This document shows positions 41,409 through 44,745 of a stretch of DNA of 64,000 nt, piece by piece. The notes under the pieces are model-generated. The model was not told the DNA's origin and did no database searches. It was given only the letters and a program-made list of their open reading frames with translations. The DNA is from a virus. How positions within the stretch are numbered: the stretch's first letter is position 1; the number at the start of each line of letters is the position of its first letter. The DNA lies in IMG/VR virus record IMGVR_UViG_2786546706_000001, positions 4,285 to 68,284 of that record. One strand, 5' to 3'. A program made the position numbers and the translations under genes.

Positions 41409-43475
41409 ATGATAATCCCATACCAATATAATAAGATGGCGGCCGGGGCGACCGTTTCGGACCCGAACCGCGCCATCGCGGGGAGCCGGGGCGTGTTCAC
41501 CTATCTCCGGAACGGGAGCTGCAACCAGAGCGGCATGGTCATGCAGAACCGATTCCTGGCATCGAGCAAGATCAGCAGAATGGAGGTGTACTCCGATGGC
41601 AGTGCGCTCTACACCACAGTCGGCAGTTACGCCAACATTTCCGTCCGCAGCGGGGGAACCGCCGTCAGCACCGTCGTCAATTACGGCGGGTATATGACGG
41701 TGAGTTCGGGCGGCACGGCGTTGGATACGGAACTCAACTCCAGCGGGTCCATGTATGTGTATCCGGACGGAAGCGCCAGCGGAGGAGACATCCATTCCTA
41801 CGGGAGAGTCTACGCATCATCGAACGCGGAGATCAACGGCTTTCACGTATCCTACGGCGGCGGTCTTTACGGTCAGGGGACGAGCGTGACGTTCAACAGC
41901 ATCACGGTCTCCAGCGGCGCGGACTTCAACGCCGGAGCATCGACGGGAGTGCGCGTCCTGCACACGACCGTTGCGCCCGGAGCGAGTTTCTCCTGCCATT
42001 CGGGGATGAACGTCAGCCACACCACCGTGATGAGCAGCGCCTATCTGTATGTGTCGAGCGGCGCTCAATGTTACGATGTTGTCATCTCGTCCGGAGGCAG
42101 AATTTACCACGGTGTCTGGGGGCACGACGAAAAGACGCTGATCACCGGGACGAACCAATACGGGAGCTTCTACCTTTCCAACGGGACGGCGTGCAATTAT
42201 GTGCTTGCGGCAGGCATGTCACAGCAGCTCTACTATTACGCCAGCGCATTGAGCACGATTATCTCCAGCGGAGGCTGTCAGCAGATTTCCTTCGGCGGAG
42301 TGGCCCAGGACAACACGATTTACAGTTCCGGCTCGCAGTTCATCTATTCCAGCGGGCGCGCCATCGATACGGTGGTCAGCAGTTACGGCGTACAGTATGC
42401 CGACTTCTTCGGAACGGCCATCAGGACCTCGGTCGCCAGCTCCGGACGGATGAATGTCACCAATTACGGACGGGCGGTCAGTCTCACCCTTGACCGGGGA
42501 GCAAGCTGTTACTGCTCCTACAATGGAGCGGTCACCTCCGCAACGGTCAGCGGTTGGATCATGTTTTCCCAGGGATGCCGGGGACAGAACATCTCCGTTC
42601 AGCCGGGAGGCTACTGTTATTTCCAGTATGGCTGTTCCGGACGGGAGATCGACGTCGCCGGAGGCGGCAGCCTGTATCTCTATCAGAACTGCGAACTGGA
42701 CAACATCCGAGTTTCGGACGGAGGGCGCACGGAGATTTACTCCATGTGCCAGATCTCCAATCTGACGGTCGGCAACGGCGAGACCTATACGGGCGGCTAT
42801 TGCGGTTTCACCAGCACGGTTCTGGGAAACTCCGCACGGTTCTGGGGCTCCAATTTCTGCGAGTACGAGGAATTTTCGGCCGGAGAGAATGTCTCCGTCA
42901 GCATCTGTTACACATGCGGAATGACGGATGTTTCCATCGGTTCAAGCGGGTATCTCTCCGCCTCGGCCCGGACCAGCGTCACCCGGATGGACGTGGCGGA
43001 CGGCGGACTGGTGTGGTTTTGCGACAACTGCTCCGGAACATCCATGACATTCGGCGAAAGCGCCCGGATGAGCATGTATTACACCTGCTGTGCGACCGGG
43101 CTTCAGATCGGCGCGGGCGGAAGCCTGTATATGTCTGAACGCTGCTCTGCACAGGATGTGGAACTTGCGGACGGAGCGTCCGCGTGGCTCTGCCAGTCCT
43201 GCTCGCTTTCCAACGTCAGCATCGCATCCGGAGCGGAACTTACCGCCTCGTATTACACCGGGCTGGACAATCTCCGGATCGCAGACGGCGGGAGAGTGCT
43301 GATGGGCAGCAGCCGCTGTGTCGCCAGCAACGTGACCGTCGACTCGGGCGGGTATCTCTCGCTCGCCAGCGGTGCATCCGCGCTCGCCGTCACCAGCGCG
43401 GTCGGGGCGGTCGTCGAGGCCGACGAGGGGGCTTACATCGAATATTCAACAACGGAGGAGGAATCCAATGAATGA
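41409..43475 (+). CDS. AIDA-I-like repeat beta-helix protein (no signal peptide, no beta-barrel)
   Basis: ~19-aa repeats V.SGG.A..T.V..GG...: VRSGGTAVSTVVNYGGYMTVSSGGTALDTELNSSG; ISSGGCQQISFGGVAQDNTIYSSG. Confidence 0.85.
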   Translation: MIIPYQYNKMAAGATVSDPNRAIAGSRGVFTYLRNGSCNQSGMVMQNRFLASSKISRMEVYSDGSALYTTVGSYANISVRSGGTAVSTVVNYGGYMTVSSGGTALDTELNSSGSMYVYPDGSASGGDIHSYGRVYASSNAEINGFHVSYGGGLYGQGTSVTFNSITVSSGADFNAGASTGVRVLHTTVAPGASFSCHSGMNVSHTTVMSSAYLYVSSGAQCYDVVISSGGRIYHGVWGHDEKTLITGTNQYGSFYLSNGTACNYVLAAGMSQQLYYYASALSTIISSGGCQQISFGGVAQDNTIYSSGSQFIYSSGRAIDTVVSSYGVQYADFFGTAIRTSVASSGRMNVTNYGRAVSLTLDRGASCYCSYNGAVTSATVSGWIMFSQGCRGQNISVQPGGYCYFQYGCSGREIDVAGGGSLYLYQNCELDNIRVSDGGRTEIYSMCQISNLTVGNGETYTGGYCGFTSTVLGNSARFWGSNFCEYEEFSAGENVSVSICYTCGMTDVSIGSSGYLSASARTSVTRMDVADGGLVWFCDNCSGTSMTFGESARMSMYYTCCATGLQIGAGGSLYMSERCSAQDVELADGASAWLCQSCSLSNVSIASGAELTASYYTGLDNLRIADGGRVLMGSSRCVASNVTVDSGGYLSLASGASALAVTSAVGAVVEADEGAYIEYSTTEEESNE

Positions 43476-44745
43476 CATCACCATCCAGTGCGAGCCGGTG
43501 AAGGACACGCCTTTGCCGGACCCGCCGCAGGAGAAACCGAAAAAGCCGACCTTTGTGCCGCCGCCAGTGATCCCGACGCAGGAGGCGGTAAGCGACATCC
43601 GATTTGACTTCAACAACGGACTCCGGGTCCTGTTCCCGGAACGAGGGGAATACAGGTGTGTTTTCCGTGATCTTGATACGGGGTGTCTGCTCTACAGCAT
43701 GGACGTCAAGCCCGGCTGCACGGTGGAGAGTGTGAAGAAGTATTATGTCCGGTTCTCGCTGGAAATCTACCGCTCCTACGCGCTGGACGAGCCGATCTTC
43801 CGGCACGATTTCGACCTGACCGGGCGGGATGTCCTGATTCAGATCCCCGAAGGTGCTCTGGGGGACGCCATCGCATGGTTCTCCTGTGTGGAGCGGTTCC
43901 AGAAGCGGCACAACTGCAACCTCTTCTGTTCGATGGAGCCCAGGATCGCCGAGATATTCCGGAAACAGTATCCGGACATCACGCTGGTCACGAGGCAGGA
44001 GGCGGAGAAACTGAAACCCTATGCCACCTATCACTTGGGACTGTTCTTCCAGGGCGATACCGATCACCAGCCCATTGATTTCCGGCAGACCGGACTTCAC
44101 CGGACGGCGGGGGCGATCCTCGGCATGGACGATCTGCCCGACGAGCCGCCCCGCGTGGATCTGACGGCGGAGCGGAAGATCAAGGAGAAGTATGTGTGCA
44201 TCGCGGCACAGGCATCCAGCCAGTGCAAATACTGGAACAATCCCTACGGCTGGCGAGAGGTCGTGCAGTATCTGAAATCCCAGGGATACCGGGTGCTCTG
44301 CGTAGACCGCATGACCGAATACGGCTGCGATTATACCTGGAACCACATTCCCTACGGGGCGGAGGACTTCACCGGCGATCTGCCGCTGCAGGAGCGCATC
44401 GACCTCATCAAAGATGCGGACTTCTTCATCGGACTGAGTTCGGGACTCTCGTGGCTCGCCTGGTGCTGCCGTGTGCCGGTGGTGCTGATTTCCGGCTTCA
44501 CCGATCCGATCAACGAGTTCTACACGCCGTATCGGGTGCGGAACCGGACCGTCTGCCACGGGTGCTGGAACGACACCAGAATCGAGTTTGACCACTTCAA
44601 CTTCCTCTGGTGTCCGCGCAAGGAAAAGTCCTGCGACAAATTCGAGTGTTCAAAGGCGATCACCGGCAAGATGGTGATCGACACGATAAAACGAATGGAA
44701 AGGAGCGCAAATGGAGCAGATCAACGCGACGCTTGTTCTCAATAA
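43468..44745 (+). CDS. Autotransporter O-heptosyltransferase, Aah/TibC (BAHT) family
   Basis: FDFNNG.R, KKYYVRF, GALGDAIAWF, QPIDFRQTGLHRTA, KYWNNPYGW, DFTGDLPLQER, FFIGLSSGLSWLAW, ISGFT, CHGCWND...WCPR...FEC iron-finger. Confidence 0.92.
   Translation: MNDITIQCEPVKDTPLPDPPQEKPKKPTFVPPPVIPTQEAVSDIRFDFNNGLRVLFPERGEYRCVFRDLDTGCLLYSMDVKPGCTVESVKKYYVRFSLEIYRSYALDEPIFRHDFDLTGRDVLIQIPEGALGDAIAWFSCVERFQKRHNCNLFCSMEPRIAEIFRKQYPDITLVTRQEAEKLKPYATYHLGLFFQGDTDHQPIDFRQTGLHRTAGAILGMDDLPDEPPRVDLTAERKIKEKYVCIAAQASSQCKYWNNPYGWREVVQYLKSQGYRVLCVDRMTEYGCDYTWNHIPYGAEDFTGDLPLQERIDLIKDADFFIGLSSGLSWLAWCCRVPVVLISGFTDPINEFYTPYRVRNRTVCHGCWNDTRIEFDHFNFLWCPRKEKSCDKFECSKAITGKMVIDTIKRMERSANGADQRDACSQ

Follow-up and report, generated by a model that had tools for sequence, protein, structure and literature searches.

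Gut Lentisphaerota phages carry an AIDA/TibA-type beta-helix gene and a TibC/Aah-family heptosyltransferase gene in a tail-fibre module: a candidate system for virion heptosylation

Three adjacent phage genes (39957-44745) probably form one co-inherited tail-fibre module, the appendage of which would be heptosylated in the cytoplasm with ADP-heptose supplied by the host. They lie in a window of 64,000 nucleotides (positions 4,285 to 68,284 of IMG/VR record IMGVR_UViG_2786546706_000001), part of a siphovirus-type provirus (a temperate phage) with relatives in Lentisphaeria/Victivallales genomes; the hosts are gut Victivallales (Lentisphaerota). An earlier note on this DNA had proposed that the phage owns a protein O-heptosyltransferase of the TibC/Aah family (BAHT) and its substrate in a tail module and uses them to build a heptosylated appendage. 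All computational tests of this central proposal that were run were favourable, and at the level of sequence the proposal is supported. We infer heptose transfer, incorporation into the virion, the attachment site and the role on the particle. The features referred to below are as follows.

29214-29624, + strand: major tail protein (phrog_1407, E 1.7e-11)
30374-36772, + strand: tape measure protein, 2132 aa, with which the distal-tail gene block begins (PF10145, 153.6 bits; matches to 22 PHROG families, the best being tape-measure families)
39957-41405, + strand: fibre protein P0003, 482 aa, with an N-terminal domain (residues 1-235) in common with P0004
41409-43475, + strand: AIDA/TibA-type strand-loop-strand beta-helix protein P0001, 688 aa, presumed heptose acceptor and appendage (PF16168, TIGR04415, AlphaFold2)
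43454-43461, + strand: ribosome-binding site GGAGGAGG of the enzyme gene, read from the sequence and located within the repeat gene, at its 3' end
43468-44745, + strand: TibC/Aah-family protein O-heptosyltransferase (BAHT), 425 aa (TIGR04414, match to TibC 4rap)
44711-46612, + strand: collagen-like tail fibre P0004, 633 aa (PF01391, 120.8 bits; phrog_819 and phrog_6320, tail/tail fibre)
46628-48799, + strand: conserved distal tail-module protein P0005, 723 aa, of no known family

The E. coli BAHT systems are represented by structures 4rap, 4rb4 and 4q1q and by families TIGR04414/TIGR04415. The phage enzyme gene lies in the frame 43372-44745 and starts at ATG 43468; the closest database relative, P0006, is 93% identical and likewise 425 aa long. 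The full-length Aah/TibC enzyme with an LGD region and an iron finger described in the earlier note was recovered, with 539.2 bits against TIGR04414 (hepto_Aah_TibC; 539.7 bits in the genome search) compared to a curated equivalog cut-off of 200, and an alignment to solved TibC (4rap) at E 3.7e-134 across 390 residues. Pfam profile searches assigned PF01075 and PF21129 TibC_1st (57.6 bits, cut-off 27), the latter representing the N-terminal beta-barrel domain of TibC. According to Yao et al. 2014 (PMC4358343), TibC needs D110, K230, R286, W305 and C339/342/358/370, with Asp110 as the catalytic base and Lys230, Arg286 and Trp305 as ADP-heptose contacts. The aligned counterparts in the phage enzyme are D133 (the Asp of 'LGD'), K254, R310 and W329, and the iron finger CxxC...C...C is formed by C363/366/382/394; TibC Thr226 is replaced by Ser250. 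D133, K254, R310, W329 and the four Cys do not vary among the clade sequences (n=25) that cover each column, the four Cys being present in 23/25 and the remaining two sequences being truncated at those columns. TibC position 300 (Pro) is Ser in the phage enzyme, the same as in Aah. In E. coli, Ser at this position permits the use of both ADP-D,D- and ADP-L,D-heptose (as given in PMC4358343), and by extension both donors may be usable by the phage enzyme. The alignments and profiles show a full-length member of the BAHT family with its catalytic residues intact.

The repeat gene likewise reads as first described, in its coordinates, its 688-aa Ser/Gly-rich product (S 15.3%, G 13.4%) and its repeats of ~19 aa: identity autocorrelation, ~0.07 in the background, reaches 0.20 (lag 19) and 0.14 (lag 38), giving a 19-aa period. 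In the HMM searches that the earlier note had suggested, 41409-43475 matched PF16168 AIDA (88 bits, cut-off 27) and the TIGR04415 strand-loop-strand repeat (62.1 bits, cut-off 30), and 43468-44745 matched TIGR04414; TIGR04415 was also present in 11/11 P0001 homologues. The AlphaFold2 model (pLDDT 87.6) is a beta-helix at residues 45 to ~680, and its top Foldseek matches were Ag43 (7koh, 3e-13) and glycosylated TibA (4q1q, 1e-11). The passengers of Ag43, TibA and AIDA-I (7koh, 4kh3, 4q1q) are the best matches in sequence and fold, but they align structurally with just 14-22% identity and low TM-scores (0.18-0.43). By family, P0001 is a BAHT-substrate-type beta-helix.

P0001 was claimed to have neither a signal peptide nor a barrel, and both points held. 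The maximum 10-aa Kyte-Doolittle mean over its first 60 residues is 0.83, with no hydrophobic signal-peptide core; the PF03797 translocator barrel was absent in the Pfam profile search, and the modelled beta-helix runs through to the C-terminus. Full-length autotransporter models scored 86.8 (NF033176) and 76.6 bits (NF033177) against cut-offs of 1200. P0001 is therefore not a type V secreted protein. No homology to proteins known from virions was found: the sole PHROG match was phrog_21473, of unknown function, tblastn against 50,697 phage records gave a single weak match and the best hit among predicted viral structures (BFVD) was a generic solenoid (1e-8). The N-terminal 62 residues have matches (n=3) only on AIDA-type bodies, and so give no independent sign of a modular tail anchor. 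The usual tail fibres are trimeric and the P0001 fold is a single-chain helix, a point against the fibre reading.

The pair sits 5 kb downstream of the tape-measure gene, and its placement between two fibre genes of the tail operon was confirmed, as P0003 and P0004 are both fibre-type and have a ~210-aa N-terminal domain in common (32% identity, E 3e-20). By sequence, residues 1-235 of P0003 are the N-terminal anchor domain. P0003 has no Pfam, NCBIfam or PHROG match; its C-terminal domain (~299-482) is a candidate docking partner of P0001, and the AlphaFold2 model (pLDDT 54.7) is too poor for a docking site to be seen. P0004 is a variable neighbour and a possible second substrate of the enzyme. 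P0005, for which Pfam, NCBIfam and PHROG searches gave no family match, has homologues that come after the fibre cassette in related loci, including the pair-less L172.

The stop codon of the repeat gene (TGA 43473-43475) and the ATG of the enzyme gene produce the 8-bp overlap noted earlier, and GGAGGAGG lies 6 nt before that ATG; on this reading the junction shows translational coupling of the two genes. The P0003/repeat, repeat/enzyme and enzyme/P0004 junctions measure 3, 8 and 35 nt, the last two being overlaps, and have ribosome-binding sites. From 36 to 51 kb of the window, the + strand yielded no promoter-like site. The + strand terminator-like sites at 38208, 47561 and 48040 are weak (stems of 5-6 pairs) and all come before the one at 50092; none of the three flanks the pair, and over both strands 19 terminator-like sites were seen compared to 16.2 expected from shuffles. 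Contigs from RNA-labelled libraries of three studies, in which DNA carry-over is possible, span the pair and the flanking tail genes, and one assembled contig of 3,028 nt, subject to the same carry-over, bridges the P0003/repeat-gene junction.

Across related loci the repeat gene stands immediately upstream of the enzyme gene in the same tail module (22/22 with at least 600 nt upstream), and a full-length P0003 gene precedes the pair (13/13 with at least 3.5 kb upstream), counts that overstate independent events since many of these loci are near-copies. Of the clade loci that extend 2 kb or more downstream, only 7/19 have P0004 directly after the enzyme gene. The enzyme tree has a branch that sets the phage enzymes apart (24 rows, support 85; nested sets 97 and 99), and by this evidence they are one clade. 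Between the window and L002, dN/dS is 0.165 (repeat gene) and 0.069 (enzyme gene); judged by these ratios, both genes are under purifying selection. Five related records (L172, L174, L175, L176 and L177) keep the tail backbone and the N-terminal domain of P0003 but are missing its C-terminal domain, homology ending at residue 235-298, and neither TIGR04414 nor TIGR04415 was found in any of them (0/5). The more divergent L171 retains the P0003 C-terminal domain, the repeat gene and the enzyme gene. Among the loci compared, these patterns show that the P0003 C-terminal domain is restricted to phages with the pair and is co-inherited with it. By the earlier note's own criterion, its proposal would fail if homologous pairs turned up solely as scattered insertions of host origin with no link to tail genes; with linkage at 22/22 and 13/13 loci in one clade, the opposite was found, and the pair, on these comparisons, is not a sporadic insertion.

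No HldE-like gene was found in the phage. In the host MAGs, full-length matches to rfaE_dom_I (321-340 bits, 4/5 MAGs) and rfaE_dom_II (148-165 bits, 4/5) and GmhA-like proteins (83-94 bits, 4/5) are present, every one scoring under its curated cut-off. Homotypic binding to host AIDA-repeat proteins, suggested in the earlier note, fared less well: chromosomal AIDA-repeat proteins occur in only 1/5 host MAGs, which leaves the idea thinly supported, and no autotransporter barrel was found (0/5). The one case, Victivallis MAG G001, carries on its chromosome an orphan BAHT (L161), together with AIDA-repeat proteins that are large and have no barrel (L164, L165); these hosts can apparently use AIDA-repeat proteins that lack a classical barrel.

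On the reading we favour, late expression would yield the 688-aa AIDA/TibA-like beta-helix in the host cytoplasm, its production being translationally coupled to that of the TibC/Aah-type heptosyltransferase. By analogy with TibC, the enzyme would move heptose from host-made ADP-heptose to serines of the strand-loop-strand rungs. The resulting sugar-coated rod of ~34 rungs, with a probable length of roughly 16 nm, would sit on the tail tip, where the likeliest points of attachment are the conserved but unstructured N-terminal 40-60 residues of P0001 and the C-terminal domain of P0003. On the virion this appendage may act in adhesion or receptor binding, or may be one that is stabilised and resists proteases.

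The enzyme might instead act mainly or additionally on another virion protein, above all the collagen-like P0004, with the AIDA-like protein not the only or the important acceptor. The enzyme gene does run into the collagen-fibre gene, and a distant viral set of 69 loci with TibC-like GT9 domains (L012-L080) offers a parallel: a collagen-like ORF starts at most 1.5 kb downstream in 35 of the 60 with at least 600 nt downstream, and the one in L053 encodes a tail fibre that combines collagen and Peptidase_S74, with additional glycosyl- and methyltransferases ahead of it. However, the constant companion in the window's own clade is the AIDA-like gene and not the collagen fibre, the distant enzymes share only 31-44% identity and lie in multidomain fusions whereas the window enzyme is a full TIGR04414 equivalog, and TibC and Aah act on strand-loop-strand beta-helices (as described in PMC4358343). 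We regard this alternative as unlikely. Somewhat more doubtful still is that the pair is a lysogenic-conversion or other non-virion cassette within the tail operon, its beta-helix working inside the host cell or at its surface, for example as a decoy or to promote aggregation or superinfection exclusion. Known bacterial versions of the gene pair always make cell-surface adhesins, and MAG G001 has an orphan BAHT and barrel-less repeat proteins of its own; yet P0001 lacks the signal peptide and barrel, the pair has no promoter-like site of its own and no flanking terminator, its genes abut or overlap tail-fibre genes on either side, it is co-inherited with a fibre-protein domain and, as weak evidence, the RNA-library contigs include adjoining tail genes and not the pair alone.

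It is very improbable that the enzyme mainly provides a platform on which the beta-helix folds or assembles, rather than decorating it, or that the pair is a decaying remnant that no longer has a role. In favour are the TibC dodecamer, the ring of which accommodates six substrate molecules (according to PMC4358343), and an in-frame TGA in the enzyme gene of L094 (G004:C210). That broken gene is the only one in 26 loci, though, and the unvarying catalytic and sugar-binding residues, with the low enzyme dN/dS, argue for retention of catalysis and against decay. A bolder extension of the heptosylated-appendage reading, which we consider quite unlikely in full, makes the heptose coat the working surface of a new receptor-binding device. 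The single-chain, hyper-heptosylated rod would use sugar-dependent self-association contacts like those of AIDA-I, TibA and Ag43 to bind barrel-less AIDA-repeat surface proteins of the host (as in MAG G001) or gut mucus. The TibC-type dodecamer, which in E. coli handles six substrates at a time, could also act here as a jig of six-fold symmetry, placing six rods on the six-fold tail tip via the P0003 C-terminal domain.

The system parallels TibC-TibA of ETEC and Aah-AIDA-I of DAEC in its adjacent genes, 19-aa strand-loop-strand rungs, full-length enzyme and key residues, and by analogy the phage modification would also be cytoplasmic and draw on ADP-heptose. Unlike those pairs, it belongs to a phage with a host in the phylum Lentisphaerota and sits in a tail-fibre operon, its substrate has no signal peptide or translocator barrel, and the substrate gene comes before the enzyme gene, the opposite of their order. 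Among 60 other genome loci (L101-L160, mostly Proteobacteria), an AIDA-type ORF was detected in 28, mostly of 1,400-2,400 aa and downstream of the enzyme gene in 26/28. P0001 also differs from Ag43, TibA and AIDA-I in having no secretion apparatus and in its cysteine-rich C-terminal half (3.5% Cys). In mycobacteriophages, phage glycosyltransferases decorate the phage's own structural proteins (Freeman et al. 2023, PMC10527164, as cited in PMC12619734), and PMC12619734 describes the actinobacteriophage glycans as lying at the C-terminal ends of the subunits of capsid and tail tube. A phage-encoded glycosyltransferase for the phage's own structural protein, presumed here, would be common to both; in contrast to the systems that source describes, ours has a dedicated repeat acceptor, a BAHT-type enzyme, a Gram-negative-type host and, presumably, heptose as the sugar. 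The environmental phage loci of the distant set resemble the window in placing an enzyme relative of the same family beside a fibre gene, which by sequence suggests fibre glycosylation, but most of their enzymes are fused to other transferase domains and they have no AIDA-type partner, whereas in the window system the bacterial pair of enzyme and substrate is kept complete. Searches of the literature turned up no paper on TibC-like GT9 domains beside phage collagen-like fibres, nor any on a BAHT-substrate pair in a phage tail module.

To our knowledge, the only role described for BAHT enzymes is the production of glycosylated autotransporter adhesins in proteobacterial pathogens. Here a complete BAHT pair has left type V secretion and become part of the tail-fibre module in a gut Lentisphaerota phage lineage. 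The TibC-like domains beside collagen-like fibres in many environmental phages suggest, from gene neighbourhood, that enzymes of this family may commonly glycosylate fibres. A rod that is both heptosylated and present on the virion would be the first known case of protein O-heptosylation in a virus particle and, with that of actinobacteriophages, one of just two kinds of glycosylation in phage virions; it would provide a defined two-gene system for sugar-coating phage appendages that could be transferred to E. coli. It would also raise the question of what phage heptose does in the gut, with receptor binding, mucus adherence, shielding from proteases or antibodies, or innate immune signalling as candidates.

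The source record is a 68,284-bp IMG/VR provirus, rated complete by CheckV, of which the window covers 64 kb. The head and tail operon occupies the + strand of the window, and the genes for a 688-aa repeat protein (P0001) and a heptosyltransferase lie inside it, between two fibre genes.

Head and tail genes around the pair
23787-25199, + strand, lambda-family portal
25206-27248, + strand, protease-capsid fusion
27320-27835, + strand, cement/decoration protein
29214-29624, + strand, major tail protein (phrog_1407)
30374-36772, + strand, tape-measure protein, 2132 aa (PF10145; PHROG tape-measure families)
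36782-39957, + strand, roughly five small genes without family assignment, ahead of the pair region
39957-41405, + strand, upstream fibre P0003, 482 aa, ending 3 nt before the repeat gene
44711-46612, + strand, collagen-like fibre P0004 (PF01391; PHROG tail-fibre families), overlapping the enzyme gene by 35 nt

The interval separating the head genes from the tape-measure gene contains no gene of sheath size, and the tail is therefore of the siphovirus type. P0003 and P0004 have in common an N-terminal domain of ~210 residues (32% identity, E 3e-20) and are thus paralogous fibres with a shared anchor. A sigma-70 consensus scan, the consensus of which may not fit Lentisphaerota, returned no promoter-like sites on the + strand in 36-51 kb. 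Three + strand terminator-like sites (38208, 47561 and 48040), all before a site at 50092, are weak (stems of 5-6 pairs), and the 19 sites observed on both strands are no excess over the 16.2 from shuffles. The late region opens with a 721-aa C5 methyltransferase (21171-23336) that matches PHROG primase and methyltransferase families, and the 3' end of the window (61148-63579) encodes a C5 methyltransferase together with a restriction enzyme of EcoRII type (PF09019 and PF09217).

The earlier note had described the repeat gene (41409-43475) as encoding a Ser/Gly-rich protein of ~19-aa AIDA-type repeats that is not an autotransporter, and this description was confirmed. P0001 contains 15.3% Ser and 13.4% Gly, and its identity autocorrelation is 0.20 for a lag of 19 residues and 0.14 for one of 38, compared to ~0.07 elsewhere. 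Curated cut-offs were exceeded by both PF16168 AIDA (88 bits versus 27) and the strand-loop-strand model for heptosylation-target repeats, TIGR04415 (62 bits versus 30). Because two defining features were tested, with neither an autotransporter barrel (profile search) nor a hydrophobic N-terminal core found, P0001 is not an autotransporter. AlphaFold2, run with an 11-sequence alignment, gave a confident single-chain beta-helix over approximately residues 45-680 (mean pLDDT 87.6), with low confidence at residues 1-42 and the final six only. Foldseek against the PDB placed Ag43 (7koh, 3e-13; 4kh3) and the TibC-glycosylated TibA fragment (4q1q, 1e-11) on top, and no close viral structural relative was found in BFVD. 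A swappable N-terminal anchor was also considered, and no sign of one was seen: the N-terminal 62 residues gave three matches, all AIDA-type, in a word-limited and hence weak search. P0001 nevertheless belongs to the BAHT-target repeat proteins.

The enzyme gene (43468-44745; 425 aa) starts within an 8-bp overlap with the repeat-gene stop and is preceded by the ribosome-binding site GGAGGAGG. Its assignment to the autotransporter heptosyltransferases was borne out by TIGR04414 (539 bits versus a cut-off of 200), and profile search resolved a TibC N-terminal barrel domain followed by GT9. Alignment to solved TibC extends across 390 residues (E 3.7e-134). TibC activity is described as requiring D110 as catalytic base, the ADP-heptose contacts T226, K230, R286 and W305, and the iron-finger residues C339/342/358/370 (Yao et al. 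2014, PMC4358343). The catalytic Asp and iron finger are retained as proposed, at D133 and C363/366/382/394 of the phage enzyme, and the ADP-heptose contacts correspond to S250, K254, R310 and W329. The enzyme has Ser at TibC position 300, as does Aah, which is described as taking both heptose epimers (PMC4358343); by analogy, the phage enzyme may be equally permissive. By every feature testable in silico, the enzyme is a BAHT family member.

The conservation of the pair was surveyed with the enzyme as query, which gave 79 loci in IMG/VR together with species-representative genomes (the best 80 of 290 relatives); ORFs were called in all loci and searched with the tail proteins of the window. 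Enzymes of at least 66% identity formed one group, which comprises six loci from viral records (L002-L007) and 18 from genomes (L081-L096, L098 and L100; among the best 80 of 290). Most of these 18, within the same best 80 of 290, are in Lentisphaeria/Victivallales MAGs, including Victivallis vadensis; the prophage fragments in MAGs labelled Verrucomicrobia, Methanomicrobiales archaeon, Clostridia and Elusimicrobia (L081, L089, L091, L095 and L096) are probably mis-binned short phage contigs and not an indication of host range. L162, a second prophage of the Victivallis MAG, and the viral contig L171, which is more divergent, bring the clade to 26 loci (genome loci from the best 80 of 290). 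Linkage of the pair to tail modules, which the earlier note had proposed to survey, held in every clade locus with enough upstream sequence. Where 600 nt or more of it is available, the gene directly before the enzyme gene is AIDA-like in 22 of 22 loci, and where 3.5 kb or more is available, a full-length P0003 homologue is ahead in 13 of 13 (for both counts, genome loci from the best 80 of 290). Near-copies occur among the 26 loci (for example, L006, L091 and L093; L092 and L094), and independent observations are therefore fewer than these counts. Between the window and L002, amino-acid identity is 83% for the repeat protein, 95% for the enzyme and 91% for P0003, and dN/dS is 0.165, 0.069 and 0.089 for the respective genes, a comparison confined to this pair of loci as dS is saturated or undefined in every other. 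Both genes of the pair are thus under maintaining selection, with the repeat protein evolving fastest. In L094:831-2108 (G004:C210:6827-7963), an in-frame TGA divides the heptosyltransferase gene into two ORFs; the near-identical L092 of the same MAG is intact. What separates the enzyme gene from that of the conserved 723-aa distal tail-module protein P0005 (window 44745-46628; same place in L003, L006, L007, L086 and L162) is a variable cassette, containing the collagen-like fibre in some phages and elsewhere a head-decoration-protein-like protein with a short ORF matching the P0004 C-terminus only. Across 50,697 phage records, the 3.3-kb region had no blastn match, and tblastn gave four records for the enzyme, all below 40% identity, and one weak record for the repeat protein; these records thus offer no cultured-phage analogue.

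Besides the pair, P0003 belongs to the module. When its alignment was used to search IMG/VR, 13 loci were recovered. Five of them (L172, L174, L175, L177 and L176; L174, L175 and L177 are near-identical to each other) share the tail backbone and retain the N-terminal domain of P0003; their homology ends at residue 235-298, with a different or absent C-terminal part. Neither TIGR04414 nor TIGR04415 was found in any of these five whole records, which are fragments of 27-63% estimated completeness that include the fibre region, and in L172 a P0005 homologue directly follows the fibre gene. L172, the N-terminal domain of which is 63% identical to that of the window, lacks the pair, yet L171, at just 52%, has full-length P0003, repeat and enzyme genes; the pattern of presence and absence is not simply one of distance. 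Across the P0003 loci, the P0003 C-terminal domain, beta-helix and enzyme are so gained and lost together, and we infer that this domain may be where the beta-helix docks. Residues 1-60 of P0001 are among its best-conserved parts and are predicted to be unstructured in isolation, which fits, and does not prove, a role as docking peptide. P0003 itself gave a poor AF2 model (pLDDT 54.7) and Z ≤4.3 in a wide structural search, so no fold was assigned; protein-cluster search returned unnamed viral clusters only.

Enzyme relationships were estimated with FastTree from 155 enzyme-domain rows (identical rows merged, L001, the locus of the window itself, excluded, domain envelopes below 280 aa left out (7 of 177 ORFs), genome loci from the best 80 of 290). 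The 24 phage-group rows fall on one side of a branch with support 85, with nested sets at 97 and 99. Among the loci kept, the next relatives are, in order, viral L008; viral L009 with the chromosomal orphan enzyme L161; Treponema and Mailhella; and a large, mostly proteobacterial group (L101-L160). In that last group, an AIDA-type ORF was detected close to the enzyme gene in 28 of the 60 loci and downstream of it in 26 of the 28, mostly with 1,400-2,400 aa (loci among the best 80 of 290). Enzyme then AIDA-type ORF is the classical order, and that of the phage is the reverse.

More distant viral enzymes have other surroundings. The closest viral outgroup enzyme (L008:3604-4764; 58% identity) sits upstream of head genes and not in a tail module, with a capsid-protein match 6 kb downstream and terminase- and portal-sized ORFs, assigned by size alone, between; an AIDA-type partner was not detected in the contig part examined. 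A 9.5-kb viral contig (L010:5877-8562) encodes a BAHT of 49% identity and, after it, a 442-aa protein with AIDA repeats and Hint_2 (PF13403, 133.6 bits); it is unusual for a glycosylation-target helix to be joined to an autoprocessing domain of the intein/Hedgehog type. The IMG/VR viral loci L012-L080 encode TibC-like GT9 domains (31-44% identity) in proteins of 270-1600 aa, often fused to GT4, GT2 or FkbM-methyltransferase, and a collagen-like ORF begins within 1.5 kb downstream in 35 of the 60 loci that have 600 nt or more on that side; in L053:5527-14201, the downstream ORF is a 1035-aa collagen and Peptidase_S74 tail fibre. Microcystis phage Mel-JY01 has a TibC-like domain inside a 1226-aa ORF annotated 'methyltransferase FkbM'. 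This arrangement of TibC-like GT9 domains beside collagen-like ORFs suggests that cassettes for fibre glycosylation are widespread among environmental phages.

A phage-supplied donor was rejected, as no HldE-kinase-like match to rfaE_dom_I, the profile searched, is present in the phage record. Five MAGs carrying these prophages, all incomplete, were searched for host counterparts. Four of the five contain full-length matches below the cut-offs for rfaE_dom_I (321-340 bits versus 345), rfaE_dom_II (148-165 versus 181.5) and GmhA-like proteins (83-94 versus 209), and because of these matches the hosts probably make ADP-heptose. Host autotransporters as a homotypic receptor were not supported, since the PF03797 barrel was found in none of the five incomplete MAGs. 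TIGR04415 repeats are apparently confined to prophage loci in four of the five, judged from the contigs listed with G004 contig C214 left out. The Victivallis vadensis MAG (G001) has a chromosomal orphan BAHT of 570 bits (L161:9675-11093) adjoining Wzz-like and CpsB capsule genes, and two AIDA-repeat proteins of 2272 and 1326 aa (L164:3703-10521 and L165:2349-6329) without a PF03797 barrel or obvious signal peptide. Recent capture of a host adhesin gene was discarded, P0001 being only 25-33% identical to these chromosomal proteins.

Runs of ruminant gut samples in 13 studies contain the window stretch. Four RNA-labelled runs were aligned to 30001-50000, all as assembled contigs that carry no depth, strand or transcript ends, may include DNA carry-over and are uninformative where they do not cover. 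From X16, a 3,028-nt contig (40301-43328) spans the P0003/repeat-gene junction and further contigs lie across the enzyme/collagen junction and P0005; X18 and X19 gave mismatch-free contigs within the repeat gene. This weakly hints that the pair is represented together with tail genes in RNA-labelled libraries.

The best-supported reading has four steps. The pair would be expressed late, along with the tail genes; serines of the helix would be O-heptosylated in the cytoplasm by the enzyme, presumably a ring-shaped dodecamer like TibC, with host ADP-heptose as donor; the coated rod would join the tail tip via P0003; and the rod on the particle would act in adhesion or receptor binding, or be merely sugar-stabilised. 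Heptosylation is proposed because family membership is strong and the residues are intact, and here the rival is an enzyme that serves as a scaffold only. Should the collagen-like fibre be the target instead, the neighbouring P0004 gene would be the partner; such a fibre is downstream in just 7 of 19 clade loci with at least 2 kb downstream, other genes being present in the remaining 12 (genome loci from the best 80 of 290). Tail-tip attachment and a role on the particle are drawn solely from gene position and co-inheritance, and the rival at these steps is a non-virion or lysogenic-conversion role of the pair.

Phage virion glycosylation is described from mycobacteriophages (PMC12619734). Among the matches listed for BAHT/TibC-phage, virion-glycosylation and Victivallis-prophage literature, no published phage-encoded BAHT or heptosylated phage protein was found by title and abstract. 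Under the heptosylated tail-rod reading, a known enzyme-substrate system here belongs to a new owner, takes a new cellular route and serves a new structural role.
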